Below, piece by piece: positions 4,979-52,681 of a stretch of 64,000 nt of DNA. This DNA is from a virus. Taxonomy: Duplodnaviria; Heunggongvirae; Uroviricota; Caudoviricetes. Made by a program: the position numbers and the translations under genes. Below the pieces are notes generated by a model, which was not told the DNA's origin, made no database searches, and saw nothing but the letters and a program-made list of their open reading frames with translations. The DNA is taken from IMG/VR virus record IMGVR_UViG_3300028886_000031, positions 216,485 to 280,484 of that record; one strand, given 5' to 3'. The number at the start of each line of letters is the position of its first letter. Within the stretch, counting starts at the first letter, position 1.

Positions 4979-5710
4979 ATGAATCATTATAATTTTTTAG
5001 CTGAAAATGTCTTGAAAACAAAGACACATTGGTCAAAATCTAATCAAGTCAATGCTATTAATGAACTAGTATTAAAATATCCAACAGCAAAGCAATTTAA
5101 AAATGCTGTTATAAGAAATGGTGATAGAAAATCAATTGAATTAATCCAGAATCTTCCGGATAATGCATCTAGATCTGACTATGTTGATTTCTTACAATCA
5201 GCATTTACGAAATATTCAACTATTGGAAAAAATATACTTTCTGCAGCTGCCGGAGTTGGTATTGGTGCAGCGACAGCATATGCAGCAGGAAAAGCTGTAG
5301 ATGCTAGCACTTCGCCAAGAACAAATTCAACACAAGAAGCACCGACAACGACACAACCACCTACAACTCCTCCAGCAACACCTCCGGCTCCAAATAATCA
5401 AGCACTTATTGATCCAACAAGTTATACTGGACGTGCTTTAAGAGCAATGGGTGCAAAGACAAATAGTCTAGGTGGAATTGTTGGAAATAGAATGAATGCC
5501 ATCGGTTTAAATGGACAGAGACTTTCTAGTATGGCAAGTAGAGCAGCAGCTGATACAAGAGGAGAAATCTTTAGTCAACAAAGAAGAGGTATTCAGGCTC
5601 TTGGTGGCGCAGCTGGATTTGGATTGGGAACTGCTGGAGCTCACGGAATTCAATCTTGGAGGCAGAAGAAACTTCAAGATAGGATAGAAGCACTCAAAAA
5701 TGGATATTAA
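4979..5710 (+). CDS. hypothetical protein with a Gly/Ala-rich segment and a Pro/Thr-rich linker
   Basis: ORF track. It contains low-complexity AAGVGIGAATAYAAG and TTTQPPTTPPATPPAP, so it may be structural. Confidence 0.5.
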   Translation: MNHYNFLAENVLKTKTHWSKSNQVNAINELVLKYPTAKQFKNAVIRNGDRKSIELIQNLPDNASRSDYVDFLQSAFTKYSTIGKNILSAAAGVGIGAATAYAAGKAVDASTSPRTNSTQEAPTTTQPPTTPPATPPAPNNQALIDPTSYTGRALRAMGAKTNSLGGIVGNRMNAIGLNGQRLSSMASRAAADTRGEIFSQQRRGIQALGGAAGFGLGTAGAHGIQSWRQKKLQDRIEALKNGY

Positions 5711-6593
5711 TATGAATAGTGATTATTCATTTCTAGAAGAATTCTTAATTCCTGCATTACTTACGCTTGGTGCATATTCTACTTTTAAAAATATGAGTCA
5801 ATCTGCATTAAACGCTAAAATGATGAATAGTATGCAGAAGGAATTAGGTAGATGTGATCCTAGAAATAGAAAATTAGCATTAAGCATTGTAAATAGATAT
5901 AGTACACAACTTACTCAAATTTATGCTAGAAAACTAGACAAAAAAACTTTAAAAAAATTAGCTGGTGCACAGAATTTAATCAATACTTATTTTAAAAGAC
6001 CACTTGATGAAATTATTAATAGTCCTAATCCAAATTGGAAAAGAGATTTATCGTTTTTCTTACAAAAAAATATTACATCTATTAATAGAAAACAGAATGC
6101 TTCTAATATGCTTACTCTTGCTGCACTTGGAACTGGTGCTGGTATAGCAACCGCTGGTGCCGCTACAGCAACAGGTGCAGCGCTCGGTCAAGTAAGTTTA
6201 TCTTTATTTGGATATAGAGTTATTCAATCTCAGCTTAAACATTTCAATTCTGTATATTACATAAAAAATATGTTGAAAGAAATGGAAGCATGTAATGACA
6301 GACAAACAGCATTAAAAATAGTGGATAAATATTGCTATCAGATATCTCAAGGATTAAATAGTATTGTAATTAAATCCGGAAAAAAAGTTCCTATGGATAT
6401 TCAATTAGAACTTCGAACAAGATTAGCAAAACCATTAATTGATATTATTAATAATCCAAACAACAAATACTGGAAGATATTAGCTATAGATTATATTAAA
6501 TCACATAGAGCACAAGAAACTATACAATATGTTAGCAATACTATATCACAACTCATTATTCCTACTGCAATAAGAAAATCATTAGGAAGATAA
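5700..6593 (+). CDS. hypothetical protein (297 aa) with a Gly/Ala-rich hydrophobic segment
   Basis: ORF track. It overlaps the upstream gene by 11 nt. Confidence 0.5.
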   Translation: MDINMNSDYSFLEEFLIPALLTLGAYSTFKNMSQSALNAKMMNSMQKELGRCDPRNRKLALSIVNRYSTQLTQIYARKLDKKTLKKLAGAQNLINTYFKRPLDEIINSPNPNWKRDLSFFLQKNITSINRKQNASNMLTLAALGTGAGIATAGAATATGAALGQVSLSLFGYRVIQSQLKHFNSVYYIKNMLKEMEACNDRQTALKIVDKYCYQISQGLNSIVIKSGKKVPMDIQLELRTRLAKPLIDIINNPNNKYWKILAIDYIKSHRAQETIQYVSNTISQLIIPTAIRKSLGR

Positions 6594-7085: not shown

Positions 7086-7790
7086 TTATAACATCGTAAA
7101 TCTCTTCATTAACTTGATGATTTTATTTTCAACAAGATAATCAAGGGCATTACCAGTATATGTATTTCCATTATTTAGCGTATAAAAATTTTTAGCCTCA
7201 TTAAGAATTTTTAATCCTTCTGTATGAGTTAATTCCATACACTTTCCTTCTTGTCTAACTTCTGTTACCTGAGATCCTTTATGTGAAGGTTCAGAAACAG
7301 CATCATAGCTGATAACGATTAAAGGCGCTTGAACATATTGCGCACCACCAGCATCGTTTACGTCAGCTAGACCTCTAAGAGAGAATCCTACTGGTATATG
7401 ATCAGCAATTAGACCACTTAGAATTTTTCCAGAAGCAGAATAAGGAAGGCTTTCTATTACTCCTTTAATTCTATTTCCTTCCCACCACCACTCTCTAACG
7501 ATATGTGATGCGTTTTTATATTCTACCGTTGTTTGCCTAATTTGATTATCGCTAATAGGATGGTCTAGTTCACATACAAATCGTCTATTATCTATTTTTT
7601 CCTGAATAGCTTTCATTCCTTGGTCCAAAACACTTCTTGGATAAACTCTTCTGTTTTGGTTTTTCTCATCAGCTGTTTGTAGATAACATTCGGCAATTAC
7701 TTTACCATCAGTATATTTTTTAAATCTATCAGGAACATCAAAGACTGCTCCTTCTATAACAATTGAAGGCGTTACTTTTGTTTTTGTCAT
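7086..7790 (-). CDS. hypothetical protein (234 aa)
   Basis: ORF track. Confidence 0.5.
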   Translation of the reverse strand: MTKTKVTPSIVIEGAVFDVPDRFKKYTDGKVIAECYLQTADEKNQNRRVYPRSVLDQGMKAIQEKIDNRRFVCELDHPISDNQIRQTTVEYKNASHIVREWWWEGNRIKGVIESLPYSASGKILSGLIADHIPVGFSLRGLADVNDAGGAQYVQAPLIVISYDAVSEPSHKGSQVTEVRQEGKCMELTHTEGLKILNEAKNFYTLNNGNTYTGNALDYLVENKIIKLMKRFTML

Positions 7791-35276: not shown

Positions 35277-36293
35277 ATGGCTAAGTACACAGACAATCCA
35301 TCTATACACATAGATGAATTTGGACATCCGCATCTAAATATATTCTTGCACTTCTTTTACGAAAAAGATCTACCAAAATATATCCCTGTTCCAAAGGATC
35401 CGGCTGTCGCGGATGAAAAATCCATGGCTGAGGCAGGTTTTGATTCTGAGATAACCTCAGCTATGAGTCCTTCTAGAATTACAAGTTCTGAATGGGGTTA
35501 TAGAAATGCTTTATTGCGAGAAATACAGGAAGAAAACAATAGAAAAAAGAAAAATGTATTTTCTAGGTTGTTCCACAAAATTAAAAGCAAATTTCATAGA
35601 GGTATTCCTGTAGAAGAGATTTTTAGTCAAGCTAAAGATAAACTTAGACTTCCAGTAACGAAAGATCTAGAACAAGCTAGAAAGAGTGCTGAAGCTTTAG
35701 AGAAGTTTTTAGCGTCTAGCGGACAGAAAAAACAAGCTGAGAAAGTTAGACAATATTGTGATATACTTGCTGGTGAGATTATACTTCTCAAGAATGGTAT
35801 AGATAAATATCTTTTAGAAGAAGATATAATTGATTTTATGCTTAAATCCGAAAAAGGTGTTTTTATAGACTTCCTTCGGAATTTCAGCAACATACTTCCG
35901 TTAGATGTAGCCAAGAAGAAGATTGATATAGATAAACTTCTTGTATTTGATAATTATTGCGTAATGTATTACGATCCATCAATAGATCCATTTAGAGAAT
36001 TAAAGGATGAAGAAACAAGACGTAAAACAACCGCTGATCCGATTCTGTTCGGAATGATATTGGGTAGTAATAAACTGTATTACATTACAGATTGGATATA
36101 TAAGGATGACGATCTTACAATGGAAAAGGTAGAGGAAGTAATGGGACGTAAGTCTAGAGCATTACAGAATGCTGAGATCGCTGACACAACATATAACCTA
36201 CATCAGTATATTACAGAAATGTCTGACCAAATAATACTTTCTATAAATTCTAAACCAGCATCATCGGATATAAGTACACAAAAATCAGAATAG
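35277..36293 (+). CDS. hypothetical protein (338 aa)
   Basis: ORF track. Confidence 0.5.
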   Translation: MAKYTDNPSIHIDEFGHPHLNIFLHFFYEKDLPKYIPVPKDPAVADEKSMAEAGFDSEITSAMSPSRITSSEWGYRNALLREIQEENNRKKKNVFSRLFHKIKSKFHRGIPVEEIFSQAKDKLRLPVTKDLEQARKSAEALEKFLASSGQKKQAEKVRQYCDILAGEIILLKNGIDKYLLEEDIIDFMLKSEKGVFIDFLRNFSNILPLDVAKKKIDIDKLLVFDNYCVMYYDPSIDPFRELKDEETRRKTTADPILFGMILGSNKLYYITDWIYKDDDLTMEKVEEVMGRKSRALQNAEIADTTYNLHQYITEMSDQIILSINSKPASSDISTQKSE

Positions 36294-38435: not shown

Positions 38436-39182
38436 TTGAAAGTTGTCATGAGTTGTTTTAATAAAAAGATTAAAAAACTTGTATCCAAAGATATCGTTAC
38501 AGAAGAAAAATGTATTTGTTCTGATAAATTGAAAGCCAAGGAATATGTTAAAAACTTAAATATCAAAGTTGTAAATATTCCAAAGGTTATAGATATCCTA
38601 GGAAAAGAAATAGTTCCAGAGAAAATAGATTTTACAAAATATAATTATCCTATGATGCTTAAATGTAATCATGGATGTAAATTCAATGTTCTATGCAGAA
38701 CAATTAAAAATGTAAATAAAAAAAATATAAAATATCTCAACAACTGTATAAAAATGAATTTCTCTAAAGTTAATGGAGAATTCCAATATTATAATATAGA
38801 TAGAAAAATATTTATAGAAGAATTTCTACCAATAGAGATGACAATTAAATTTCATTGTTTTCATGGTAATCCAATGTTTGTAGAAATTTTTAAAATGTCT
38901 TTTCTAAAACCAATTTGCTGTAACGAATATGATATAAATTTTAATAAATTCGAATTTACAAATGCTTTTAAAAGATATGATTTAACACCAAGAGTTCCAA
39001 GTTATCCTAAGTTGGTGGAAGATACAAAAAAACTATGTCAAAATTTCGATTATGTTAGAGTAGATTACTATATAGATGTATTGAAGAAAATTTGGTTTAG
39101 CGAATTCACTTTTAGTCCAGCAGCTGGAAATTTACATTTTATAAATCGTAAAATGGATCAATATTTTGGAAGTTTAATATGA
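38436..39182 (+). CDS. TupA-like ATP-grasp protein (capsule/teichuronic-acid-locus family)
   Basis: PMMLKCNHGCKFNVLC, EFQYYNIDRKIFIEEFL and IKFHCFHGNPMFVEI parallel the ATPgrasp_TupA blocks (fVlKpnHGsG, EwqYk..p.i.vEe.L, DyKffcFnG.p.f). Confidence 0.45.
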   Translation: MKVVMSCFNKKIKKLVSKDIVTEEKCICSDKLKAKEYVKNLNIKVVNIPKVIDILGKEIVPEKIDFTKYNYPMMLKCNHGCKFNVLCRTIKNVNKKNIKYLNNCIKMNFSKVNGEFQYYNIDRKIFIEEFLPIEMTIKFHCFHGNPMFVEIFKMSFLKPICCNEYDINFNKFEFTNAFKRYDLTPRVPSYPKLVEDTKKLCQNFDYVRVDYYIDVLKKIWFSEFTFSPAAGNLHFINRKMDQYFGSLI

Positions 39183-39856
39183 CGTTGACAAAAGAAGATA
39201 TTTTAAAACATGCTTTTGTTATTTCTATTAGTAATAAAAGATTGAGAACATTCTATGAGAGAATGAATAGTATTGGCTTTAATAACATTCAGCATGTAAT
39301 TGGTTCACAATATTCGGACGATAAAGTTAAGAATATTAATATTACAACAATAAATATTATAAAATATGCTATTAAAAACAATTATAGTAAAATAACAATA
39401 TTTGAAGATGATGCTTTTCCAGTTAAGGATTTTAATAATAGATTTCTAGAAGTTATACAGAATATCCCGGATGATGCTAGATGCTTAGCATTAGGATACA
39501 ATGCTGTAAATAGCATATTTAATAAAAATAAAGATAAAAAATACGATCTTTTAAATCAAGAAGAACTTAAAAATAAAATATTTGTTAATAGAAAATATAT
39601 TAAATCATTCTGGGGTGGTCATAGCTATATTATGTTCAAAAAAGATTATTGGAGATATATAAATCTATTATCAAAATATACTCCAGACAATTCTAAATAT
39701 GAAGTAGATAAATGTATATGGATGAGAAATAATTATTTCTATACTATAAGAATTCCATTATTTGTACAAAAAAATTTTGATGACATACATAATGTTCATA
39801 AATCAGAAGGAAACAAATGTGCTGATATGATTAATAAAGAATATAATATTCTCTAG
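39179..39856 (+). CDS. glycosyltransferase family 25-like (LPS/LOS-type)
   Basis: N-terminal AFVISISNKRLRTFYERMNSIGFNNIQHVIGSQ plus TIFEDDAFP match the GT25 signature. It is a paralog of 42714-43523. Confidence 0.5.
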   Translation: MTLTKEDILKHAFVISISNKRLRTFYERMNSIGFNNIQHVIGSQYSDDKVKNINITTINIIKYAIKNNYSKITIFEDDAFPVKDFNNRFLEVIQNIPDDARCLALGYNAVNSIFNKNKDKKYDLLNQEELKNKIFVNRKYIKSFWGGHSYIMFKKDYWRYINLLSKYTPDNSKYEVDKCIWMRNNYFYTIRIPLFVQKNFDDIHNVHKSEGNKCADMINKEYNIL

Positions 39857-40166
39857 TTTCAATTTCATTTGGAGTTATATAAGAAATATCTCCAGAATAT
39901 AAAATTTCAGTTAGAATAACTTTCTGTGCTTCTGTATAGTCCTCTGGAACCACAGGTCTAGAATATGTATTAGTACCATCTTCTAATTGATAGTATTTTT
40001 TTAAGTCCATAATTACATTTTCATTAGTATTTGTTATATTATTAGCAAATGTATATATGTTCTCGTTTGAATTATCTATTTGCCAATATAATATATCACA
40101 GAAACAGATCATATAAAATAGAATACAAGTTATAAACAATAGAATTTTTTTCATAAACTTCTCCAT
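39831..40166 (-). CDS. hypothetical secreted/TM protein (111 aa)
   Basis: N-terminal hydrophobic segment ILLFITCILFYMICFC. Confidence 0.45.
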   Translation of the reverse strand: MEKFMKKILLFITCILFYMICFCDILYWQIDNSNENIYTFANNITNTNENVIMDLKKYYQLEDGTNTYSRPVVPEDYTEAQKVILTEILYSGDISYITPNEIETREYYILY

Positions 40167-40227: not shown

Positions 40228-40980
40228 TTATATCTTTTCTCCCCATAAAACACAGATCTTATTGTGTTTACTTAAGAATTTCTTTTGATCTTCTGTTAGC
40301 TCATTATAATAAGGATGTTTTTTGATGTTATCTATATTAACTCTTTTAATAATTCTATATTTAACATTCCATGGAGTTTCAACAATATCACCTTCGTAAT
40401 ATCTATCATAATCATTAGAAACTCTTGTAGTAACAAACTTATTCTTTTTAGATAATTCTTCTATTTCATTTTTAGGAAATTCTATCATCTTTACTTTCTG
40501 TTTAACTATAGAATTTGCCAAATATTCACAGAATGATTCTTCTTCCATTTTGTTTGGTCTAACATGATCTAAATATACAGTATGGAAAGCTTCTTTTCTA
40601 ACTTTTACTTTAATTAATCTTTTAAACCATTTATCACAAATATTATTATAAACTTCATGAGCTAGTTCGTGTGCTATAATAATCTTATTGAATACATCTT
40701 TTGAATCTTTTATTTTGTAAAAATCCATTACATCTTCTATATTGGGATTAATTTGAATGTATTTTAACTTTGTCCAAGATCCACCAGATTCTTCTTGTTT
40801 TAATTCATGACATTGTTTTCCATTATTGTAAATTGGTTGAGAATTTATCTTTAATTTCATGTAAGATAAGTCAAAATTGTATACTTGTTTGTAAGCATTA
40901 ATACAATATCTAAAATTCTTTTTAATGAGATCGATATTAGAGTTATTTATAGATTCCATTAAAAAAGAGTATTGTTTCAT
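40228..40980 (-). CDS. CTS-tagged internal-protein candidate with HExxH metallopeptidase motif
   Basis: The true N-terminus is probably the internal MKQYSFLMESINN. It contains IIAHELAHEVYNN (HExxH). Confidence 0.55.
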   Translation of the reverse strand: MKQYSFLMESINNSNIDLIKKNFRYCINAYKQVYNFDLSYMKLKINSQPIYNNGKQCHELKQEESGGSWTKLKYIQINPNIEDVMDFYKIKDSKDVFNKIIIAHELAHEVYNNICDKWFKRLIKVKVRKEAFHTVYLDHVRPNKMEEESFCEYLANSIVKQKVKMIEFPKNEIEELSKKNKFVTTRVSNDYDRYYEGDIVETPWNVKYRIIKRVNIDNIKKHPYYNELTEDQKKFLSKHNKICVLWGEKI

Positions 40981-41306
40981 AACCATTCCTTTAATGATTT
41001 GATTGCACATTTAACATCATTTTCTGTACAATCACGAGATAAAGGACCATTTCTATGTCCTAATAAACCAAATTGTGAAGCACTACTTTGTGCCTTATCT
41101 GGATAAAATGTAAATCCACATCTATGTTTTGTTGGTTCACCTCTATATACAATAATGTATGTTTCTCCTCTAGCATTGTGTTCTGATATATGAACATCCT
41201 TATGGTTAGATATAATATTTTTAATTTCAGAAACACCTTTATCATAAATTGGAAATTCTGATTCTTGTGATGTTACAGATTCTAAAAGGAAAGAGTATTG
41301 TTTCAT
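40977..41306 (-). CDS. CTS-tagged internal-protein candidate (109 aa)
   Basis: N-terminus MKQYSFLLESV. Confidence 0.55.
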   Translation of the reverse strand: MKQYSFLLESVTSQESEFPIYDKGVSEIKNIISNHKDVHISEHNARGETYIIVYRGEPTKHRCGFTFYPDKAQSSASQFGLLGHRNGPLSRDCTENDVKCAIKSLKEWL

Positions 41307-42097
41307 ACATTTTTACCCCATTTTTCACTCATTATCTTTTTATAATTCTCTTCATTGGAACATCCATATAACTCTTTACACTTTTTATCACTTATCTTTT
41401 TCATCTTCGGAGTCATTAATTCCCAATTTTTTCTAACCCTTATCTGTTCTTCTATAGATGGTTCTGGATGTACTAATTCTATTCCTGTTCTTGCACGCCA
41501 TTTATGAACTTTTACTCCAGTAGAATCCTTATCATTTATTTTAAATATATCAGGACCATATGAACCAAGCATTTTTATAATAGTTTCTTTAGGATATTTT
41601 TCTAATATTTGATTTATACAATATGGTGGATCATATTTATTTGATATCCATTCCCATTCATAACTAAAATCCTTGAATTTTTCAAAACCAGTATCAATCA
41701 TTTTAGTTAATTCTTTCGTTTTATCTGGTATTTTGAATATTAATCCAATATATTGGACTTTAACTGGTTTTAAAATCCATACTTCATTTGTACCATCTAT
41801 ATTAAAAACTTGTTTTTTAGATGGTTTATATATGGATTCTGGATCTACATTAATTGCTTTGTGTACATAATATACATTAGATCTATATGGAGGAGCACCA
41901 TGTAAAGCTCTTGATATTGATGTAGAGAAACAAATTCTTTTTGTCACATGATCTTCATCTTTATGATATAAAGATTTTGGAACTCTTGGTGTTAAAATTT
42001 TATTATTTAAATTTTCATAACTCAAATGATAAAGTGTACTTTTTCCATCATTATATTTATAAAATAGATCTTCTGTTAAAAATGAATAATGTTTCAT
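41303..42097 (-). CDS. CTS-tagged internal-protein candidate (264 aa)
   Basis: N-terminus MKHYSFLTEDL. Confidence 0.55.
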   Translation of the reverse strand: MKHYSFLTEDLFYKYNDGKSTLYHLSYENLNNKILTPRVPKSLYHKDEDHVTKRICFSTSISRALHGAPPYRSNVYYVHKAINVDPESIYKPSKKQVFNIDGTNEVWILKPVKVQYIGLIFKIPDKTKELTKMIDTGFEKFKDFSYEWEWISNKYDPPYCINQILEKYPKETIIKMLGSYGPDIFKINDKDSTGVKVHKWRARTGIELVHPEPSIEEQIRVRKNWELMTPKMKKISDKKCKELYGCSNEENYKKIMSEKWGKNV

Positions 42098-42717
42098 TAT
42101 TTATCCTTCTTCCATTCTGTACATTTTATTAAAAACTTTACAGAGATCTTATCAACTTTAAATGGTTTTACATTATCTTTAATGACAAATTCCCAAGGTA
42201 TATCATTATCTTGAAAAGCCTTATCTCTATACTTATTATAATCTATATAATAAACATATCCTGTAAATGTTCTTACGAAATCTTTAAATAGAATTTGTTT
42301 TTTATTTGTGTCAAACATAAAAATATCCACTATACTCTTTTGTGGATATGTTGTTTGCATTTTCTTTTTAAATTCTGGATTATGAACTTTTTCACGTAAT
42401 TTTTGTCTCATTCCATTAGTCTTGAATCCCCAGATAAATTTATCTAACTTAATCTTTTTAAGTTCTGGATATTCTTTTATAATTTCATTATATAGAATCT
42501 TACTATCAAAAATAAAATGTGCTGCTGACCATTTAAAAGGAGTTACAAATACACAATCATAACCAAGTCTTCTATCATGAGTTCTACTTCCTTTGATAAG
42601 TTTCATATTTCCATTCTGACTGCCATGATAAACAGTATTATTAAGAATATAAGATTCCTTATCTTGAGTAATACTCAATTGATTTAAAGACTCTGTTAAA
42701 AATGAATAGTGTTTCAT
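42097..42717 (-). CDS. CTS-tagged internal-protein candidate (206 aa)
   Basis: N-terminus MKHYSFLTESL. Confidence 0.55.
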   Translation of the reverse strand: MKHYSFLTESLNQLSITQDKESYILNNTVYHGSQNGNMKLIKGSRTHDRRLGYDCVFVTPFKWSAAHFIFDSKILYNEIIKEYPELKKIKLDKFIWGFKTNGMRQKLREKVHNPEFKKKMQTTYPQKSIVDIFMFDTNKKQILFKDFVRTFTGYVYYIDYNKYRDKAFQDNDIPWEFVIKDNVKPFKVDKISVKFLIKCTEWKKDK

Positions 42718-43523
42718 AATTTTGATGTATTTATCAATATTGGATCCATAAAAGTTTTATGATTTATTTTATCGAATTGTAATTCATGGTTGAATTCTGG
42801 GAACTTTTTAAATATGGAATTATATAACATATCTATATTCTTTATATGATGAATATGACTTGTTCCAAACCGTCCTGTTTTAAACCATTTTGTTCCATCT
42901 TTCATAAAATCATTTTTAATATAAAAGAATTTCTTTTTATTTATATCAAGCTGTGCAAAATAAGATTCTTTTGTATAATAAATATTTTTACATGATGATA
43001 AAGTAATATCAATAAATATAGGAGCTATTTTTTTCATATATCTCATGTTATTATATGGATATATATGCTTCCTGTTTTTCATTATATCACATACTTCATT
43101 ATAGCAATCTGATGTAATGAGATAAGCCTGTGAACCACCTAATCTTATATAATTATCAGAATAGATACAGCCGCACTCATTATCATGTATTAATGTTTTA
43201 GGATCAAAACCAATCTTTACATACCCAAAAGATAACACTCCTTTAAAATTTTTATTAGATAATATATCTAATGTATTATATAATCCACTTAGGTCATTAC
43301 ATGGCCAAGCATCATCTTCATACATTATAAAATAATCTAATTTATTAGGAATTGCATATCTTTTTATAAAATCATATATATTTTGCGAAAGACCTTTTGC
43401 TGCATATAATATTTTCGGGACCGGAATACCACTCTGTGTAAATACAGTTTTTAAAACATTATATTTATAAGCATTTCTTGTTAAAACAAAAGAATTCTTT
43501 CCTAAACTAAACATATTTAACAA
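42714..43523 (-). CDS. glycosyltransferase family 25-like (paralog of 39179-39856), no CTS
   Basis: SFVLTRNAYKYNVLKTVFTQSGIPVPKILYAAKG and FIMYEDDAWP parallel the 39179-39856 motifs. Confidence 0.45.
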   Translation of the reverse strand: MLNMFSLGKNSFVLTRNAYKYNVLKTVFTQSGIPVPKILYAAKGLSQNIYDFIKRYAIPNKLDYFIMYEDDAWPCNDLSGLYNTLDILSNKNFKGVLSFGYVKIGFDPKTLIHDNECGCIYSDNYIRLGGSQAYLITSDCYNEVCDIMKNRKHIYPYNNMRYMKKIAPIFIDITLSSCKNIYYTKESYFAQLDINKKKFFYIKNDFMKDGTKWFKTGRFGTSHIHHIKNIDMLYNSIFKKFPEFNHELQFDKINHKTFMDPILINTSKL

Positions 43524-43534
43524 TCTTTCTAATT

Positions 43535-43915
43535 TTACACTACATGTCTTCGTTTAATACTATTAACAACATGCTTCACATAATCCGGTGCAAAACATTT
43601 AACCCATCTTTCCTTATCGATATATCCGCACCAAGCATCCAAGCACATTAAATGCGAAACATGCTCTTTAAACACTTTAATAATTTCTTTTAAGAATTCT
43701 TTCTTTGAGTCAGGTAAATTTTTGAAAGAATCTGATCTTGTATAATTATTCTCTAAATAATCAATAGCGTTTCTAATATCTCCTGTACAATCATCTTCGC
43801 TATTAGAATTCTTAATATCATTAGCAACTTTTGCAAATGGAATCATTTCACAATCTTCTTCTGTACAAAAATTAGAGAATGAACTAGATTCTGTTATAAA
43901 TGAATATTGTTTCAT
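43535..43915 (-). CDS. CTS-tagged internal-protein candidate (126 aa)
   Basis: N-terminus MKQYSFITESS. Confidence 0.55.
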   Translation of the reverse strand: MKQYSFITESSSFSNFCTEEDCEMIPFAKVANDIKNSNSEDDCTGDIRNAIDYLENNYTRSDSFKNLPDSKKEFLKEIIKVFKEHVSHLMCLDAWCGYIDKERWVKCFAPDYVKHVVNSIKRRHVV

Positions 43916-43916
43916 A

Positions 43917-44153
43917 TTACTTATTTTCCTTTAAAAAATTTCTATATGATTCTGAAATATCTATCCAACTTGTTCCACTTCTACCAAAATATTGGTTAGA
44001 ATCAGATTTTAGAACAATATATCCAATATTATCCTTGAAATTTGAGGATTCTATCAGTTTATCAAATTCGTCCCAATCTTTAATAGCTCTAAAGAATTCT
44101 GGAGCACCATTTAGATCTTTAAGAGTATATGCCTTATTACTTTCCATTTTCAA
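43917..44153 (-). CDS. hypothetical protein (78 aa), no CTS
   Basis: ORF track. It sits between CTS genes. Confidence 0.45.
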   Translation of the reverse strand: MKMESNKAYTLKDLNGAPEFFRAIKDWDEFDKLIESSNFKDNIGYIVLKSDSNQYFGRSGTSWIDISESYRNFLKENK

Positions 44154-44544
44154 TCTCCTTATTCAACTTAACAATCATCTTATGCATCCAATCAAAATCA
44201 ATATCTTTCCAAGTTTTGCCGGATGGTATTGTTAAATTTCTTTCTATTGGTTTAATGTAATGTTGTACTTCTTTTTCATCACCATGTAAATATGGATTAT
44301 CTTCTGGTGTTTTATACATGTAGAATTTTACATTTAAAGTGTTACCGTTAATACGAATAGAAATTTCTGCTCTATTATGACCTTTTGTTTTGGTGTATGA
44401 ACAATAAGTTTCACCACCATCTCCACCAGAAGAACATTTCCAACCTTTAATGCTTCCTAATGCTTTATCTACAATATCAGTAGTAATTGGAAAATCACCA
44501 AACCAAAGTTTTTCTGATTCCGTTAAAAATGAGTAATATTTCAT
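44137..44544 (-). CDS. CTS-tagged internal-protein candidate (135 aa)
   Basis: N-terminus MKYYSFLTESE. Confidence 0.55.
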   Translation of the reverse strand: MKYYSFLTESEKLWFGDFPITTDIVDKALGSIKGWKCSSGGDGGETYCSYTKTKGHNRAEISIRINGNTLNVKFYMYKTPEDNPYLHGDEKEVQHYIKPIERNLTIPSGKTWKDIDFDWMHKMIVKLNKEIENGK

Positions 44545-44915
44545 ATCGGTATCTCTCCATGTATAGCATCAGAAGCATTTTTTATAAAACCTCTTTTGCC
44601 TTTAGCAGTTTTTAAAATAACATCACCAAGTTCTTTCGTATGCACTACATCTTCCGGTATTATTGTTTCCATACCCATTTTCATCCCTTTTTGTAATTGT
44701 TCTTTCCAATTTACTTTTTTTGTTGGATTTAAGACTCTATGTACAACAGCTGGTCCCAATCTTGTAGGCATATCTGGATGATTCTTTAGATATGATTGAG
44801 GAACTTTAACAGATCCAGCACCAATAGCCCCAAGAAGAGATAATATTCCAGCTACACCACTTTTAATTTTTCCTTCTTCTAATATTGTAGGATCTAAGAA
44901 TGAATATTGTTTCAT
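44541..44915 (-). CDS. CTS-tagged internal-protein candidate (about 124 aa; start at the internal MKQYSFLDPT)
   Basis: The ORF track begins MKAMKQYSFL. The conserved block starts at the second Met. Confidence 0.5.
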   Translation of the reverse strand: MKQYSFLDPTILEEGKIKSGVAGILSLLGAIGAGSVKVPQSYLKNHPDMPTRLGPAVVHRVLNPTKKVNWKEQLQKGMKMGMETIIPEDVVHTKELGDVILKTAKGKRGFIKNASDAIHGEIPI

Positions 44916-44948
44916 AGCTTTCAATCTATAATATAATTTTATAGTATT

Positions 44949-45739: not shown

Positions 45740-46378
45740 ATGTATAAAATAACTTTACTTATCCTTTTTCCACTTATTCTATTTGGAAATGAATATTATC
45801 TTCCTACCAATAATCTAATTATTTTGAAACATAATACGTATACTATTGGCTATAATACCAATACACTTCAAGCAGCATGGGTGCAATATGTTTTAACATC
45901 AAATCAACTATGTTCTACAGTTAAATTCAAAAGAACTGATGATTTTAGACCGGATCCTTTATTAACAAACATAAATTGTTTTGTTGTAAAACCTTCTTAT
46001 TATAATAAAACTGGATATGATAAAGGACATTTATGTCCAGCACAAGATAGATCTTATAATAAAGAGGCGACATCAGAAACATTTTACATGTCCAATATGA
46101 GTCCACAACTTCCTGGATTTAACAGAGGGTCTTGGAAAAAATTAGAAGAATGGACTAGACAATATGCAATCACAAACGGAAATCCTGTTACAGTTGTAAC
46201 AGGACCAGTTTTTATGGAATATGAAATACATGATTTACATAAACACATTGAATTAAGAGATGGTCACAAGATATGTGTTCCAAATCAATATTTTAAAATA
46301 TTGTTAACAAAAGAATTGGTAAATGAAAGTGAATGTATTACAAACAAGATTATGTTTCTAATGGAGAATAAACAATGA
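45740..46378 (+). CDS. DNA/RNA non-specific endonuclease (NucA/EndoG beta-beta-alpha-Me family) with signal peptide
   Basis: YDKGHLCPAQD matches the (F/Y)DRGH(L/Q)xPA active-site motif. SNMSPQ resembles the SN(I/M)xPQ block. The N-terminus LLILFPLILFG is hydrophobic. Confidence 0.65.
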   Translation: MYKITLLILFPLILFGNEYYLPTNNLIILKHNTYTIGYNTNTLQAAWVQYVLTSNQLCSTVKFKRTDDFRPDPLLTNINCFVVKPSYYNKTGYDKGHLCPAQDRSYNKEATSETFYMSNMSPQLPGFNRGSWKKLEEWTRQYAITNGNPVTVVTGPVFMEYEIHDLHKHIELRDGHKICVPNQYFKILLTKELVNESECITNKIMFLMENKQ

Positions 46379-47082
46379 CAACATTGCCAATAACATTCAG
46401 TACGCATAACAGAACAGAATATGCAACAACATGTCTTAAAAAATTAATAGAAAATTTGAAATTTGATGGAGATATTTATCTTTATATATGTGACGATAGA
46501 TCCACAAAAGAACACATTAATTCATTAATAGAAACATTAAGAACATGTAATTTTTCAAATTATGAAATAATATCTTGTACAGAAGAACATTATGGTTATG
46601 GATATGTTTTAAATACAGCTTTAGATAAAGCATATTCTTATAGTGACGTAGCATTAACAATGGAAGATGATTGGCTTCTCCAAACTAAAACAGATTTTAA
46701 TATACCAGTTAATATGTTACTTAATAACAGTGATAAATATGCTGGAATTAGATTATGTGTAAAAGAAATAGATGGATTAATTCATAACAATTTACCAAAT
46801 AATTTTTTTATGTTTAAAAATGTTCCGAGATTATATTTTGCACATTATGTTTTTCAATGTATGCTAAGACATAAAAAAATATTTGAAAAAATAAGATTCC
46901 TAGAAAATACATTTCCACAACGTGCAGAGTTAGATTTAAAAGACAAATATAAAAAAATAGTTTTAAAACCTAAATTAAATCATTTATTAATGTTAAATTA
47001 TATTCTTCCCGATGGATCTCCTATATTTAAACATATAGGAAAAATTTCGACAATGCCAGGCAATAGAAATAATTATAGATAA
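46375..47082 (+). CDS. glycosyltransferase family 2-like
   Basis: PITFSTHNRTEY...LYICDDRSTKEH resembles the GT2 N-terminal pattern (xxIPxYN....DDGSTD). Confidence 0.45.
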   Translation: MTTLPITFSTHNRTEYATTCLKKLIENLKFDGDIYLYICDDRSTKEHINSLIETLRTCNFSNYEIISCTEEHYGYGYVLNTALDKAYSYSDVALTMEDDWLLQTKTDFNIPVNMLLNNSDKYAGIRLCVKEIDGLIHNNLPNNFFMFKNVPRLYFAHYVFQCMLRHKKIFEKIRFLENTFPQRAELDLKDKYKKIVLKPKLNHLLMLNYILPDGSPIFKHIGKISTMPGNRNNYR

Positions 47083-47101
47083 CAAATTAAAATTTGAACT
47101 T

Positions 47102-48778
47102 ATGAAAATAGCTGTAATTACTCATTTTAATTATAATTCTAATTATGGACAGAGATTACAAAATATATCTCTTGTTACATATCTTAAAAATATTTATCAA
47201 ACAGAAGATATATATACATTTGCATATGATATTCGCGGCTATAAATTAGAAAAAATAAGACATACGGATATAGAAGATAAATATCTAAAATTAATACAAT
47301 TAGATTTTAAAGATCCAAATACATTTATTAATTATGATTTATATGTATTTGGAAGTGATCAAGTTTTTGCATATGCGAAATGGATGTCACAAAATATTAA
47401 AGATATGTTTTATGGAAATTTATTTATAAGATATGGATTTAAACATTTTATATCATATTCATCATCTGCTAATTCACATTTAGATAATTATAAGAAATAT
47501 GTATGCAGTAATTTTAAATATATTTCATTTAGAGAAAAAAATGATGTATTAAAATATAATATTCCAAATAGTATTTATAATATAGATCCTGTATTTTTAC
47601 AGTCTAAAGAATTCTGGGAAAGTTTAGAAAAGAAACCGAATTTTATTAATGAAAATGAAATATTTGATTTTGAATATTCTATAGGAAGAAAAGATTTTGA
47701 GATTACAAAAAAAGATGGTATAAAATACATACATATTTATTTTAATAATTATATTAAATCTAATTGGGTTGGTTATGGTGAATTCCTTTGGTTGATACAT
47801 CATTGCAGAAAATTAATAACATCTAGTTTTCATGGTTTTGCATTTGGTATCATATATCAAAAACCATATATAGAATTTAAACATAATTATAGAATAGATG
47901 ATTTAATAGAAATTTTAAATATAAAATTTGATAATAATGTTATTAATTATGACGAAATACAAGAGAATATTAAAAAAGAACAAGAACGTTCAAAAGAATA
48001 CTTTTTGAAATCTTCTGTTTTTAATTATTGTTGTTACTCTAAAGATAAATATATACATGATAATTCTACATCTGGTGGAGTTTGCCCAGAATTGGCTAAA
48101 TATGTTTTTAATAACAATGGTATTGTTTATGCTGCTAGATATAATAATGATTTTACAAAAGTAATAATAGATTCTGTGGATAATTTGGAAGATTATTTTA
48201 AATATTTTGTTAAATCAAAATATAATTTTAGTTATATGCCTAAATTATCAATTATTAAAGAACAATTAGAAAATGGAAAATTAATTCTGTATATTGGTAG
48301 TCCATGTCAAATTCTAGCATTAAAAACATATCTTAAAAAAGATTATGATAATTTAATACTTGTAGATTTTGAATGCCGAGGTTTTTCTACATCTAAAAAA
48401 TTAGAAAATTTTACCAAAAATATAGAATCGAAATATGGATCTAAAATTAAAAATATTGATTTTAGACCAGATCATAGAGTTGATGGAGTATTAGTTGAAT
48501 TAAATGATGGTAGAACTATTAAATACAAAGTCTCTGTATTTAGAGACTTTGTATTTAGAAGTTTAGAAAAATGCCAAGAATGTAAATTTGATCATGGAAC
48601 AATATCTTATTCAGATATTACTGTAAGTGATTTTTGGTCTAATTCTAAAAATAAATGGAAGCTCGGCAAAGAATTTACACCAGAAAATGGATGTAATCAT
48701 GTAAGAACAAATACATTAAAAGGTTTTATTTTCTTTAATAAAATCAAAGATAAGATATTCTACAAACAATTAAAATAA
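47102..48778 (+). CDS. polysaccharide pyruvyl transferase-like protein (558 aa, two-domain)
   Basis: N-terminal MKIAVITHFNYNSNYGQRLQNISL resembles the PS_pyruv_trans N-terminus. The C-terminal half has a CxxGF/Cys-containing domain. Confidence 0.4.
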   Translation: MKIAVITHFNYNSNYGQRLQNISLVTYLKNIYQTEDIYTFAYDIRGYKLEKIRHTDIEDKYLKLIQLDFKDPNTFINYDLYVFGSDQVFAYAKWMSQNIKDMFYGNLFIRYGFKHFISYSSSANSHLDNYKKYVCSNFKYISFREKNDVLKYNIPNSIYNIDPVFLQSKEFWESLEKKPNFINENEIFDFEYSIGRKDFEITKKDGIKYIHIYFNNYIKSNWVGYGEFLWLIHHCRKLITSSFHGFAFGIIYQKPYIEFKHNYRIDDLIEILNIKFDNNVINYDEIQENIKKEQERSKEYFLKSSVFNYCCYSKDKYIHDNSTSGGVCPELAKYVFNNNGIVYAARYNNDFTKVIIDSVDNLEDYFKYFVKSKYNFSYMPKLSIIKEQLENGKLILYIGSPCQILALKTYLKKDYDNLILVDFECRGFSTSKKLENFTKNIESKYGSKIKNIDFRPDHRVDGVLVELNDGRTIKYKVSVFRDFVFRSLEKCQECKFDHGTISYSDITVSDFWSNSKNKWKLGKEFTPENGCNHVRTNTLKGFIFFNKIKDKIFYKQLK

Positions 48779-48846
48779 ACAAGATTTGCCATTAGTGATG
48801 GACATAATGAAAACGACTAAATCTAATTAAAATCAACTATGCTCCA

Positions 48847-50652
48847 CTATTGCATTTCATATAAACATTCTAATAATTTATCATTATTATCTTTAGAATT
48901 TATTGCTAATCTTATAAACTCGGAATTAGAAAAACCTTTTTTATGAGAACAATCTTTTATAAGAAATGATTTTTTCCATAATCTTTTTAATAATGATTTT
49001 ACATTAAAAGGTTTATTTACTCTACATAAAACATAATTTCCTTCTGATGGGAAAACAGTTAAGAACTTAATTTTAGAAAGTTCATTAATAAACCTATAGC
49101 GTTCATATATAAGTTTTTTACAACTTATTTTATATTCACTATCATATCTATCTAAAATTTGAAGGAAAAATTCACCTATAGAATTAATATTCCATATAGA
49201 AAGATGTTTTTTTATTGTGGATATTATCTCTTTATTACCGCTTGCTATAAATCCTAATCGTACTCCTGGGATACCATAACTCTTAGATATAGATTTTATA
49301 ATACTGACGTGTTTATTAGCATACAAAAAAACATTATTTAATAATGTATAATTATCAATAGCAAAATCCATAAAAGATTCATCTATTAAAATAGATATAT
49401 TATTATTTTTAGCCCATATTACAAGTTTAAAAATATCTTTTTTAGATATAAAATTTCCAGATGGATTATCTGGATTTATTAGAATAATAGAAGATAATGA
49501 CTTATTATTAAAATATTGTATAATATCATCTACTGTATATCTAAATCCATTAGATTGTGGGGCGTTAAATACAATTTTACGATCGTCACTAATTCTGTTA
49601 GAATATTCTTCAAATGTAGGATATATAAAGCCAACTTTACCTTTGCTATTATTCATCCATATATTAATTATTTCAGATGCGCCATTTCCAACAGCAACAA
49701 ATTCATTTTTTAAATTAAAAATTTTAGATACTAATAAAGAGTTAATGTTTTGACCAGATGGATATTTTCTAATAAGATCATCTAGAGAATTTTTAACTTC
49801 CAAAATCATTTTCTCTGATGGATAATATGGATTAACGAGATACGTATAATCTTTAATATTTGGATATCTCCAATAGCCACCATAACGTTCTGATATTTTT
49901 TTAATTTGTGTATCTGGTTTACAAAATATAGATTCCGCAATATTTAAGTCTTGTATATCATCGATTTCATACCATTTCTCATCATTTAATGGCAATGCTT
50001 TAATTAACTTTTTATCTATAGACGTAATTATTTTTAAAACTTGTTCATAATATTCATTATTACTAATAGACTTAATATATACATCTAAAAATGGTACAAG
50101 ATTATTTTTAGAAAATTCTTTAGAAAATTTATATATATTTACAGTTTTATAATAAGAATCTAAATAATTATAATCAAATTTTGTTTTATCTATAAAATTT
50201 ATAATATTATAATCGTTATCCATTTGAATACAAGTACCATCCATCCAGTTCTGATACTTATCTACAACGGCAACATTTTCATATTTAGATTGAATAAGAT
50301 TTGTAATTATACTATCTTGAAAAATAATATCACTTTCCAATAAAATTGTATCATCTTTAATTAATTCATCAGAAGCTATTTTTAAGGAATATATATTATT
50401 TGTTTTGTGATAATCTAAATTTGAAATATATTGTATTGGAATATTGTTCCATTTATTACCTAGATATTTTTCAAGATTTTCTTTTTTATATCCATCTACT
50501 ATTATTATCTTATCTAGGTTAATTTTGGACAATTGATTTAGCATTCTATCTATTAATCTAACGCCATTAATTTTTACCATACATTTTGTATTATTTTTGG
50601 TAAAATTCTTTAAGCGTTTTCCCATTCCAGCTGCTAATATTAATGCTTGCAT
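48847..50652 (-). CDS. bifunctional sugar-phosphate nucleotidyltransferase / class I-II PLP aminotransferase-fold fusion
   Basis: N-terminal MQALILAAGMGKRL is the nucleotidyltransferase signature. C-terminal AVGNGASEIINIW...KSISKSYGIPGVRLGF is aminotransferase/CobD-like. Confidence 0.5.
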   Translation of the reverse strand: MQALILAAGMGKRLKNFTKNNTKCMVKINGVRLIDRMLNQLSKINLDKIIIVDGYKKENLEKYLGNKWNNIPIQYISNLDYHKTNNIYSLKIASDELIKDDTILLESDIIFQDSIITNLIQSKYENVAVVDKYQNWMDGTCIQMDNDYNIINFIDKTKFDYNYLDSYYKTVNIYKFSKEFSKNNLVPFLDVYIKSISNNEYYEQVLKIITSIDKKLIKALPLNDEKWYEIDDIQDLNIAESIFCKPDTQIKKISERYGGYWRYPNIKDYTYLVNPYYPSEKMILEVKNSLDDLIRKYPSGQNINSLLVSKIFNLKNEFVAVGNGASEIINIWMNNSKGKVGFIYPTFEEYSNRISDDRKIVFNAPQSNGFRYTVDDIIQYFNNKSLSSIILINPDNPSGNFISKKDIFKLVIWAKNNNISILIDESFMDFAIDNYTLLNNVFLYANKHVSIIKSISKSYGIPGVRLGFIASGNKEIISTIKKHLSIWNINSIGEFFLQILDRYDSEYKISCKKLIYERYRFINELSKIKFLTVFPSEGNYVLCRVNKPFNVKSLLKRLWKKSFLIKDCSHKKGFSNSEFIRLAINSKDNNDKLLECLYEMQ

Positions 50653-50697
50653 TTATATCACCTGTATATATTTCTGATGATTTAGCCCATGAAATAT

Positions 50698-51846
50698 TTA
50701 TATTATATAATCTTTATATTCTTCTTGACCCAATATCAAATTAATAATATTATCTGTTGGAGTTTTTCCATTTGGATATTTTTTACAGTATTTTTCTATG
50801 TGTTCTTTTCTAATATCACGCTTTATATCATTTCCATCTATAACATTTTGAACGAATGTTCTTAAACTATCGTTCGGACCACATAATTCATGACTGTTAA
50901 TAGCATCTTTGCATATTTCTGTATGATTAGTTTTTAAGATATTCATAGACAAATCATTTGTCATATAACAAACTGGTTTATCCATATAAAGATATTCACA
51001 TTTAAATGATCCACAATCATGAATCATTGCATCTGAATATCTGAAATATGGAACATAATTTTCGGAACAATCTATAGTGAATAATTCAGCTAAATAATCT
51101 AACTTATTAAATATATCTTTTACAATATTCATTGGCAAAAATTTATATATTCTATTTGTTAGTCTACACCAACTATAATATAATAAAGGATGTGGTCTTA
51201 TTATAAAATCAACTTCTGAGTTAAATTCTTTTAATGAACAAATATCTTTATATCTGTTTAAAAAGTCACTCTTGTCGACTTTGTTACTACGGCCTAATGT
51301 CCAATGAGGACAAATCAATATACGCTTTTTTGTACTTGGTTCTAGTGCATATTCATCTTTCCAAGGATCTTCAAGATGTTCTTTGGGAATATTAAGGACT
51401 TCTTCGAAAGGATTTCCTGTTTCTACTATATGATTAGGTTTTTGATTATAATCTCCTTTTCTACATATACCAATTAAACAATCCTTAAACATCTTATAGT
51501 AAGAGCTATCTGTATCAAAAGCATATGGAACAAATAGAAATTTTCTATTCTTAAGAATAGTATTCATTGTAGAAATATCACAATATCTTTCTTTATGAGG
51601 ATCCGATGGAATTATCAAATCAAAATCATTATAATTATCTATTGTAATATCATATATAGATTTTGTTTCTATAACATTAAAACGCTTATGTTTCTTTAAC
51701 TTTTCAACTAATGGCTCAATTTTAGATTTGAGTTTATCATAAACAAATTGTGTTCCATCTACCTTCGTATTTCCTTTATATCTAATTACACAAACATTGA
51801 TTTTATCTTTAGAACGAATATTGTCTAATATTTCAGATCTTGTCAT
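50698..51846 (-). CDS. CDP-alcohol/glycerophosphotransferase-like (TagB/TagF family?) protein
   Basis: ILICPHWTLG resembles the IL(Y/F)APTWR motif of Glyphos_transf. The start was moved to the internal Met MTRSEILD, which has RBS TGAGGTA 8 nt upstream and avoids an 83-nt overlap. Confidence 0.4.
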   Translation of the reverse strand: MTRSEILDNIRSKDKINVCVIRYKGNTKVDGTQFVYDKLKSKIEPLVEKLKKHKRFNVIETKSIYDITIDNYNDFDLIIPSDPHKERYCDISTMNTILKNRKFLFVPYAFDTDSSYYKMFKDCLIGICRKGDYNQKPNHIVETGNPFEEVLNIPKEHLEDPWKDEYALEPSTKKRILICPHWTLGRSNKVDKSDFLNRYKDICSLKEFNSEVDFIIRPHPLLYYSWCRLTNRIYKFLPMNIVKDIFNKLDYLAELFTIDCSENYVPYFRYSDAMIHDCGSFKCEYLYMDKPVCYMTNDLSMNILKTNHTEICKDAINSHELCGPNDSLRTFVQNVIDGNDIKRDIRKEHIEKYCKKYPNGKTPTDNIINLILGQEEYKDYII

Positions 51847-51862
51847 TTTAAGTACCTCATTT

Positions 51863-52681
51863 TTAACATCTATTAAAGAGTTTATTACATAAATTATGTA
51901 ATTCGTTATGAACATCTGATCCATTGCCAAATATTTCATGTTCAAAATTTTGAATTAATAATGGCTGTATATATTTTATTGTTTGTTTATTAATAATTTT
52001 AACAATGGCAGTTCTTCCATCTATTTTTCCTACATATTTAACTGGTATTCCCATAGCAATACAAGGTAAATATATATGCAATCTAGATGTATATACAATC
52101 TTAGCATTCTCTTTGAGATATTTCAAACGATTATATGCTACACTTTCCATTTCTAATTCTGTTCTATTATGGTGATGAACTAATTGAGTTAAAGAAACAG
52201 AATTTTTTTCTGAATGTGATTTTACAAAATTATTTCCACAATCAATAAAAATAATCTTATCATTTTTCTGATTGATATTTGAAAAATCTAATAAATTAGC
52301 CATTAATGATGGACATAATGAAACATACGAATTCGGACATTGATCCTTAAATAATTCATACGTTTTAAAGTCTCGACAACCAAATCTTTTATTAGTTCTA
52401 AGATCTTTTATTTTATTAGAGCAATGAAATCCTATATAATTATATACATCTTTCTTATTATTCCAAAATTTTGTATTTGAAGTTTCTACAGTTGAAAAAA
52501 ATCCACTCATAATCATTACATCGTTGTCTTTAAAATCAAAACGATCTATTTTATCTCTTCTTACATAATTAGAGTCTATATTATGTTTTTTTATAAAATT
52601 ACGAAGGCATAATATATAAATGAAATCACCTAAATTATGATGACGATACCTGTAATTAGTACATGAAATTGTATATATCAT
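51863..52681 (-). CDS. polysaccharide pyruvyl transferase-like protein
   Basis: YTSRLHIYLPCIAMGIPVKYVG resembles the PS_pyruv_trans C-terminal block (TSRLHAaI.Al..G.P). Confidence 0.4.
   Translation of the reverse strand: MIYTISCTNYRYRHHNLGDFIYILCLRNFIKKHNIDSNYVRRDKIDRFDFKDNDVMIMSGFFSTVETSNTKFWNNKKDVYNYIGFHCSNKIKDLRTNKRFGCRDFKTYELFKDQCPNSYVSLCPSLMANLLDFSNINQKNDKIIFIDCGNNFVKSHSEKNSVSLTQLVHHHNRTELEMESVAYNRLKYLKENAKIVYTSRLHIYLPCIAMGIPVKYVGKIDGRTAIVKIINKQTIKYIQPLLIQNFEHEIFGNGSDVHNELHNLCNKLFNRC

Follow-up and report, generated by a model that had tools for sequence, protein, structure and literature searches.

The subject of this analysis is a 64,000-nucleotide stretch of a tailed-phage genome (Caudoviricetes; IMG/VR record IMGVR_UViG_3300028886_000031, positions 216,485 to 280,484), referred to here as the window, and within it an array of seven minus-strand genes (40228-44915) whose products open with the block MK[QHY]YSF[LI] as part of a 9-residue N-terminal tag (Table 1). 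A preliminary description of the DNA had listed seven nearly identical ten-residue starts, and all of them were confirmed. It had also called the genes consecutive. They are clustered, but two untagged open reading frames (ORFs) are interleaved. Most junctions in the array overlap by 1-4 nt, which identifies it as one translationally coupled gene block. Mechanically delimited ORFs begin slightly upstream (g1 at 41010, g8 at a TTG codon at 44924); the methionine of MKQYSF is the start in homologs and in an independent gene call.

In a six-frame regular-expression search of the window, MK.YSF[LI] had no occurrence outside the seven array starts. Given the amino acid frequencies of the window, approximately 3e-4 ORFs of at least 90 aa would be expected to start in this way by chance, versus the 7 observed. 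After removal of the first 10 residues, an all-versus-all BLASTP comparison of the seven proteins yielded no pair below E = 0.2, so that the earlier statement that the bodies are unrelated downstream of the block holds at BLASTP sensitivity. The motif F-(L/I)-x-E, previously counted in six of the seven starts, is indeed present in six, and the seventh, g8, likewise possesses an (L/I)xE, located later: its sole such motif near the N-terminus is I-L-E at residues 11-13. The mature part of g8 is basic (isoelectric point 9.8) and contains a Gly/Ala-rich hydrophobic segment, GVAGILSLLGAIGAGSV.

Table 1. Tagged genes, prohead protease and neighbouring features. Coordinates refer to the window unless a contig is named; ART, ADP-ribosyltransferase.
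Feature	Coordinates	Strand	Length	Remarks
g1	40228..40980	-	250 aa	leader MKQYSFLME, then S; HExxH (zincin-like) domain, residues ~15-165, and ~80-aa C-terminal module
g2	40977..41306	-	109 aa	leader MKQYSFLLE, then S
g3	41303..42097	-	264 aa	leader MKHYSFLTE, then D; predicted ART-like N-domain, residues ~20-150 (window 41648-42040, -), and helical C-terminal module
g4	42097..42717	-	206 aa	leader MKHYSFLTE, then S; predicted ART-fold enzyme
Untagged interleaved ORF	42714..43514	-	266 aa	weakly glycosyltransferase-like
g6	43535..43915	-	126 aa	leader MKQYSFITE, then S; Cys-rich acidic protein
Untagged interleaved ORF	43917..44147	-	76 aa	adjoins g7, also in relatives
g7	44137..44544	-	135 aa	leader MKYYSFLTE, then S
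g8	44541..44915	-	124 aa	first ten residues MKQYSFLDPT; variant leader MKQYSFLDPTILE, then E
Prohead maturation protease	7086..7790	-		T4 gp21 family (Peptidase_S77); PF03420 match
Tagged gene beside protease	4979..5710	+	243 aa	leader MNHYNFLAE, then N
Tagged gene beside protease	5712..6593	+	293 aa	leader MNSDYSFLEE, then F
Tagged gene upstream of window	L072:3560-3790	-	76 aa	opens MKSYSFLSE; ~5.3 kb upstream of window position 1
ORF directly downstream of protease gene	6646-7047	-	133 aa	no family match
Glycan/surface-polymer biosynthesis genes	38436-39856; 46375-52681; 883-2266			first two flank the array
GT25-like protein	39179..39856
Neighbour gene	39831..40166			signal-peptide-like N-terminus
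DNA/RNA non-specific endonuclease	45740-46378	+		PF01223; divergent from array block
NAD+ salvage pair	54696-57149	+
tRNA genes (nine)	24569-32915; 53476-53549			tRNA-Ser with anticodon ACT at 28035-28124
HNH endonuclease-like ORF	23893-24534			adjoins tRNA cluster
Transposase-like ORF	35277..36293			phrog_10081
Upstream flank	L072:1-9303

The tandem, co-oriented and tightly packed arrangement of the genes raises the question of whether they are paralogs that arose by repeated duplication, in which case the shared start would be a leftover, or else an element acting at the nucleotide level, for instance to enhance translation initiation or to provide a site for recombination. Two observations are in keeping with such an origin: the 27 nt that encode the leader are the sole conserved DNA and could be a recombination joint, and homology between relatives stops directly after the Glu codon. 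The bodies, on the other hand, lack detectable similarity and have at least two different architectures. Nor is the DNA itself what is conserved: averaged over all pairs of the seven genes, nucleotide identity is 0.77 in nt 1-27, compared with 0.32 in the 27 nt that lie upstream of the ATG and 0.36 in nt 28-54, and within the conserved leader codons it is 0.90 at the first, 1.00 at the second and 0.64 at the third position, with the synonymous codons TAT/TAC, TCA/TCT, TTT/TTC and TTA/CTT all in use. Because the third positions vary while the amino acids are fixed, selection acts on the leader peptide and not on the DNA. The tag is moreover found on genes far from the array and in other phages, and the same cargo domain exists in tagged and untagged form (see below). 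Duplication or a DNA element as the source of the shared start is therefore very unlikely.

The peptide resembles the capsid-targeting sequence (CTS) of phage T4, as had been proposed. In T4, propeptides on the internal proteins (IPs) direct these proteins to the prohead core and are removed by the protease gp21; the IP genes are poorly conserved among the T-even phages except for the tag, and Alt, an ADP-ribosyltransferase (ART), is packaged and processed like the IPs (PMC9026906, PMC3012670, PMC5694885). According to the T4 record, IPII and IPIII open with MKTYQEFIAE followed by A, and IPI opens with MKTFKEFTSTTTPVSTITE followed by A but is cut later, at ITE-19; the core and shell proteins gp22, gp67 and gp24 start with MLKEQLIAE, MEGLIE and MAKINELLRE, respectively. 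Mutagenesis of the IPIII tag assigned targeting to residues 4 and 7 (Y4, F7) and processing to residues 8 and 10 (I8, E10) (PMC9026906). The leader M-K-x-Y-S-F-(L/I)-x-E aligns with MKTYQEFIAE after deletion of one residue between Tyr and Phe, and with this gap the four T4 functional positions are kept and map onto Y4, F6, L/I7 and E9 of the leader. All seven array proteins have Y4 and F6; six have L and one has I at position 7, and E9 is present in six.

An N-terminal block that begins with Met-Lys could also be a signal of the secretion, lipoprotein or membrane-targeting kind, by which the proteins would leave the infected cell or reach its envelope, and two neighbours of the array, the endonuclease gene and the gene at 39831..40166, do encode signal-peptide-like N-termini. 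The leader shows no such feature. It comprises 9 residues with a mean hydropathy of -0.34 and has neither the hydrophobic core of at least 7-10 residues that follows the basic N-region of Sec signals nor a lipobox Cys, and the Glu at position 9 is fixed and followed by polar sequence. Of the nine tagged proteins analysed, only three (g8 and the two encoded beside the protease) have hydrophobic segments, and these lie downstream of the predicted cleavage site. As the leader is short, non-hydrophobic, devoid of Cys and ends in Glu, it is not a secretion or lipoprotein signal, and export or envelope targeting as its role is extremely improbable. AlphaFold2 models of g4 and g3 show an unstructured leader, with a predicted local distance difference test score (pLDDT) below 50.

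A search for a gp21 homolog, suggested in the preliminary description, revealed a Peptidase_S77 protease gene in the same window (PF03420, E = 2.3e-13, 50.5 bits versus a cutoff of 27). Its product also matches the T4 gp21 structure (PDB 5JBL, E = 4.2e-8) and scores weakly on Peptidase_S80. Relative to wild-type T4 gp21, the catalytic His (ELDHP/ELNHP) and Ser (GFSLRG/GVSSRG) are kept, and the N-terminal PSIVIE lines up with PQLLIE, an autocleavage-type site of T4. The nearest proteases in tblastn searches are those of the giant phages SA1 and PALS_2 of Staphylococcus, Goe21 of Bacillus, LPJP1 of Listeria and phiR1-37 of Yersinia (33-41% identity); identity to T4-like phages is about 30%. The protease is the predicted enzyme that removes the leader.

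The leader had been reported for the array only. This restriction did not hold: two genes beside the protease gene and one gene upstream of the window encode proteins that start with the tag (Table 1). The products of both genes beside the protease are basic and contain Gly/Ala-rich hydrophobic segments. The 243-aa protein is a candidate head-core or ejection protein; the 293-aa protein is 43-47% identical to homologs in the related contigs L159 and L207, the latter of which opens with MKQYSFLHE followed by S. The presence of tagged genes far from the array means that the tag is not a by-product of local tandem duplication, and the MKSYSFLSE gene outside the window implies that the number of tagged genes in the whole genome exceeds that visible in the window. 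The 133-aa ORF product encoded directly downstream of the protease gene opens with MKKSNKNPLKRIVTEE; with its N-terminal V-T-E site, it is possibly a further protease substrate or a core protein.

Relatives of the array were identified by scanning metagenome contigs with a degenerate leader-coding pattern, supplemented by protein searches and context look-ups. The pattern scan gave many single matches, most of which were chance matches in frame, but also about 14 low-GC contigs with 1-4 genes opening with MKQYSFLxE, most of them with at least two in tandem. Leader DNA pattern scans of IMG/VR revealed no arrays, only single out-of-frame chance matches, and the same scan of GTDB genomes likewise gave no arrays, only single chance matches, so that no prophage or host clue was obtained. 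The array content differs between relatives, which bears out the earlier suggestion of a hypervariable locus. In the window the order is g8-g7-x-g6-GT-g4-g3-g2-g1, in which x and GT are the two untagged ORFs; it is g7-g6-new-new-g1 in L192, g7-x-new-new in L124 and L164, and g6-g3-g1 in L314. In L315, NUDIX ... GNAT-g3-g7-x-g6-g2 is followed by both modules of g1 as separate genes in reversed order. While the content differs, the genes common to relatives are 85-90% identical: g7 homologs with the leader occur in L124, L186, L192 and L315 (85-89% identity) and g6 homologs in L186, L192 and L315 (about 90%). In L124 and L164 the g6 slot is occupied by an unrelated tagged gene of 122 aa, and g2 has a tagged homolog in L315.

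Of the two untagged ORFs, the longer one resembles the GT25-like protein encoded next to the array (BLASTP E = 2e-4, a 36-residue match around the motif EDDA[WF]P) and does not occur in the arrays of the relatives seen. The shorter one encodes 76 aa in the window versus 101-116 aa in L124, L186 and L315; the window copy lacks about 40 N-terminal residues, and the versions of the relatives contain an internal V-I-L-E site followed by S.

At least 18 unrelated cargo types carry the tag in the related contigs, including, in L315, a NUDIX hydrolase (PF00293, E = 4e-10) and a GNAT acetyltransferase (PF13508, E = 6e-12). Homologs of g1, g3 and g4 are in some cases tagged, in others provided with variant leaders that end in (L/I)xE (MILSKILLE, MSNINKLLLE, MIYYSFLTE), and in still others leaderless or part of larger fusions. 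The occurrence of the same cargo domains with the tag, with a variant leader and without a leader makes the tag a portable module, one that is found on unrelated cargos within arrays whose content turns over rapidly. In L112, tagged genes for coiled-coil, Gly/Met/Pro- or Gln-rich, scaffold-like proteins lie directly upstream of the gene for the major head protein (phrog_20655, E = 2.5e-11), which itself starts with MGSIKSLLQE followed by S and whose best cultured match is the capsid precursor of phiR1-37. Tagged genes thus stand beside the protease gene in this genome and beside the capsid gene in a relative.

The array cargos are predicted to comprise two ART-fold enzymes, a zincin-type HExxH protein and four small proteins. 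The single HExxH member noted previously is g1, in which the motif HExxH...E...E is preserved across 20 aligned homologs: H104 and E105 never vary, and at least 90% of the sequences retain H108, E109, E148 and E152. Some of these homologs give sub-threshold Pfam matches to YgjP-like (E = 3e-4), WLM, Reprolysin_3 and SprT-like families. For g1 itself there was no Pfam match and the threshold of no curated peptidase family was reached; a PDB profile search retrieved only the HExxH helix of ERAP2 (E = 0.5). Recombination partners of the g1 modules are GNAT, the C-module of g3 and other bodies. An identification of the C-terminal module of g1 as an ASCH domain was not supported by Pfam. The metagenomic g1 homolog P0025 breaks off about 85 residues in and runs on into a TnpB-type OrfB_Zn_ribbon domain (PF07282), an architecture that suggests insertion of an insertion sequence into an array gene.

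The remaining six proteins had been described as orphans. This applies to g2, g6, g7 and g8, which together with the interleaved ORFs received no family assignment from Pfam or PHROGs, but not to g3 and g4, which model as ART-like folds. The AlphaFold2 model of g4 has a pLDDT of 76.5 and a predicted template modelling score of 0.74. Its motifs YHGS (30-33), CVFVT (55-59) and WEFVI (175-179) are reminiscent of the H-Y-E class and, as YHGS, CV[FY]VT and [WY]EFVI, vary little or not at all in an alignment of 7 sequences. In g3, R38, R54 and E105 are invariant in alignments of both 7 and 36 sequences; the His of its LYHLS motif is invariant only among the 7 close homologs, and at least 90% of the 36 distant ones retain the Ser. 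At the level of the fold, g3 and g4 can be assigned with moderate confidence to ART-like proteins with a split beta-sheet NAD-binding core. Neither they nor the 36 relatives of g3 had a Pfam, PHROG-function or PDB sequence match, and by sequence profile they are thus not members of a described ART family. A Foldseek comparison of the g4 model with viral structures gave nothing below E = 0.06. Among cultured phages, tblastn searches revealed just a weak match of g3 in Burkholderia phage BCSR5 and none for g1 and g4. Homology between g3 and g4 was considered but not supported, as hhalign aligned only the leader and YH.S at 23% probability.

The N-domain of g3 (consensus LYHLS..PRVP..RxCFSxSI..ExW) belongs to a very large uncharacterised family; a full HMMER search retrieved 2678 representative clusters at E <= 1e-3. 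It stands alone or, often, within proteins of 1000-2400 aa together with GNAT, SNF2 helicase, NUDIX, transglutaminase, deamidase and NTPase modules. Such large proteins have the architecture of polyvalent proteins, as described for effectors that arrive with invading DNA (PMC5512222). The cargo types correspond to those of known injected effectors: by analogy, the predicted ART folds would parallel T4 Alt, and ART, zincin, GNAT, NUDIX and SNF2 modules are typical of polyvalent proteins.

Taken together, these observations support, as far as sequence analysis goes, the earlier reading of the block as a T4-type CTS. MK-x-Y-S-F-(L/I)-x-E is probably a capsid-targeting propeptide, and the array a cassette collection of injected early effectors. 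By analogy with T4, the tagged proteins would be synthesised during prohead assembly, the aromatic pair Y4/F6 would dock the tag onto the scaffolding core, and the shell would close around the core. The gp21-family serine protease would then cleave after Glu9 of (L/I)-x-E, and the mature proteins would remain in the head with the DNA and enter the host with it. We infer physical packaging and ejection, as well as where the proteins are cleaved, when they are expressed and which activities and targets the cargos have, whereas the shared tag, its conservation at the peptide level and the protease gene are observed. The simplest account of the data is a propeptide of this kind, cut by the S77 protease, on a rapidly evolving set of injected effectors.

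Several findings argue against capsid targeting. Only about 6 of the 10 positions of the T4 tag are matched, in an alignment that includes a one-residue gap, and the likeness could reflect convergence on the needs of a Glu-specific protease. E9 is missing in g8, and one g4 homolog has K at position 9. No gp22-type scaffold homolog, portal or capsid gene was found in the 84 kb of this genome that the analysis covered, and the array lies in a region of glycan-biosynthesis and auxiliary genes, 33 kb away from the protease gene. Known giant-phage head proteins carry long rather than short shared propeptides (PMC5694885). Two cultured phages whose proteases are among the most similar, Staphylococcus phage SA1 and Bacillus phage Goe21, showed no shared leader in the 40 kb surrounding the protease gene, only scattered N-terminal LxE sites.

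The main rival interprets the leader as a cleavable pro-sequence or regulatory tag unrelated to the capsid, which might keep potentially toxic enzymes inactive or mark them for timed degradation and would be removed by the phage protease, a host protease or the HExxH protein of the array itself. Several cargos are enzymes potentially harmful to the producing cell, a zincin-like protein belongs to the array, and zincin processing of polyvalent effectors is a proposed theme (PMC5512222); the capsid location of the tagged proteins, for its part, is something we only infer. Yet the tag ends in (L/I)-x-E, the type of site cut by gp21-family proteases, and such a protease is encoded in the window. 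The tag is also present on small non-enzymatic and scaffold-like proteins encoded beside protease and capsid genes, and Y4 and F6 are conserved upstream of the cleavage site, their T4 counterparts serving targeting and not cleavage. A regulatory pro-sequence fits these data less well than capsid targeting and is rather unlikely.

With the IPs and Alt of T4 the system shares a short N-terminal propeptide common to proteins with no other relationship, the pattern M-K-x-Y...F-(I/L)-x-E with a small residue after it, an encoded S77-family protease, one member with a delayed cleavage site (I-L-E of g8 here, IPI in T4), loci that are polymorphic between relatives and, at the level of fold prediction, ART-type cargo as in Alt. 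It differs in that the tag has 9 instead of 10 residues, with no counterpart of T4 Glu6, and in that seven tagged genes form one operon-like array with at least three more elsewhere, versus three scattered IP genes in T4. Most cargos have the size of enzymes (11-30 kDa), and some are neutral or acidic, in contrast to the small basic IPs, none of which has a homolog among them. The genome is that of a 321-kb giant phage, and its protease shares only about 30% identity with the enzymes of T4-like phages.

The ejection or inner-body proteins of phiKZ, 201phi2-1 and SPN3US, which are processed by proteases of the gp175/gp245 type, are likewise those of giant phages. Many of these head-internal proteins are cut after Glu at x-X-E by a distant gp21 relative, and paralogs such as gp53 and gp54 of SPN3US can have identical N-termini (PMC5694885). 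Their propeptides, however, usually comprise 80-130 residues with the motif (S/A/G)-x-E (PMC5694885) and do not form a common tag on unrelated cargos, whereas the tag described here has the length of that of T4 and L/I at P3. A third comparison concerns polyvalent proteins and MuF-fused effectors from phages and conjugative elements, for which delivery into the host along with the invading DNA is predicted (Iyer et al. 2017, PMC5512222). ART-like, zincin-like peptidase, GNAT and NUDIX modules are common to both systems, the N-domain of g3 is itself a module of the 1000-2400-aa multidomain proteins, and modules shuffle between proteins. In the array, by contrast, the effectors would be separate small gene products, each tagged, rather than one giant polypeptide anchored by a MuF or portal domain; no MuF domain was found here.

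The window spans the ends of the 321,653-bp contig ena:ERZ27256887:k141_2997416, which overlap by 141 bp, the k of the assembler, and it is contiguous in an independent assembly of 321,631 bp (Ga0310695_10000037). The assembly of the genome is therefore circular, with a size of about 321.5 kb, which makes the virus a giant phage. A DNA search with the array against 50,697 phage records revealed no match, and the lineage has no cultured relative. The window is gene-dense, with a G+C content of 24-35% in 2-kb steps and about 25-26% across the array, and the GC skew is negative over 40-46 kb, as expected for minus-strand coding. In a promoter scan sigma-70-like sites were not enriched (54 found versus 57 expected), and a scan for terminators found none. 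Upstream of g8 is an AR9-early-like TATATTAT, but with 37 occurrences versus 27 expected this motif shows no clear enrichment across the window.

Genes for glycan or surface-polymer biosynthesis flank the array and recur near the start of the window. The region encodes a TupA-like ATP-grasp protein, GT25-like proteins, polysaccharide pyruvyl transferases, a glycerophosphotransferase-like protein and a fusion of an NTP-transferase with an aminotransferase. The DNA/RNA non-specific endonuclease (PF01223, E = 9e-39) has the signal-peptide-like N-terminus MYKITLLILFPLILFG. The NAD+ salvage pair consists of a NUDIX/cytidylyltransferase-like protein and a nicotinamide phosphoribosyltransferase (phrog_448, E = 8e-143); the pair may matter should the tagged ART-like enzymes consume NAD+, or may act against NAD-depleting defences. 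The window further contains nine tRNA genes, among them one for a tRNA-Ser with the unusual anticodon ACT, the HNH endonuclease-like ORF that adjoins the tRNA cluster and a transposase-like ORF. The upstream flank encodes the anaerobic ribonucleotide reductase NrdD and a radical-SAM activase, which suggests an anaerobic host, as well as a GDP-mannose dehydratase/epimerase and a 428-aa fusion of QueC with a glutamine amidotransferase that hints at 7-deazaguanine chemistry.

The combination of a CTS, a gp21-type protease and polymorphic internal-protein loci is already known for T4, and no new principle emerges here. What is new is the lineage, that of an uncultivated giant phage of 321 kb with head genes nearest to those of phiR1-37 and AR9-type phages, and, with regard to the system itself, the number of genes that carry the tag, a cargo repertoire that is enzymatic and resembles polyvalent proteins, and the clear evidence that tag and cargos recombine as modules. 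A more far-reaching interpretation, which we regard as tentative and on balance doubtful, is that the tag is an address label that marks the whole injected-protein repertoire of a giant-phage clade. Its 27-nt coding sequence would then serve as the recombination joint for an integron-like swapping of cassettes and single domains, and the cargos would include new ART-like families, with the N-domain of g3 (about 2700 representative clusters) as a major module of polyvalent conflict proteins.

The phage proteins that enter a cell together with the DNA are hard to learn without proteomics of a cultured phage. If the tag works like the CTS of T4, sequence alone could suffice to list the effectors that an entire uncultivated giant-phage clade injects, and this would provide a catalogue of candidate anti-defence and host-takeover proteins that includes NUDIX, GNAT, zincin-like and ART-like members. 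The short targeting logic of T4 would then extend to a giant-phage lineage in which only long propeptides are known, and a second natural pair of tag and protease would be available for loading foreign proteins into capsids.

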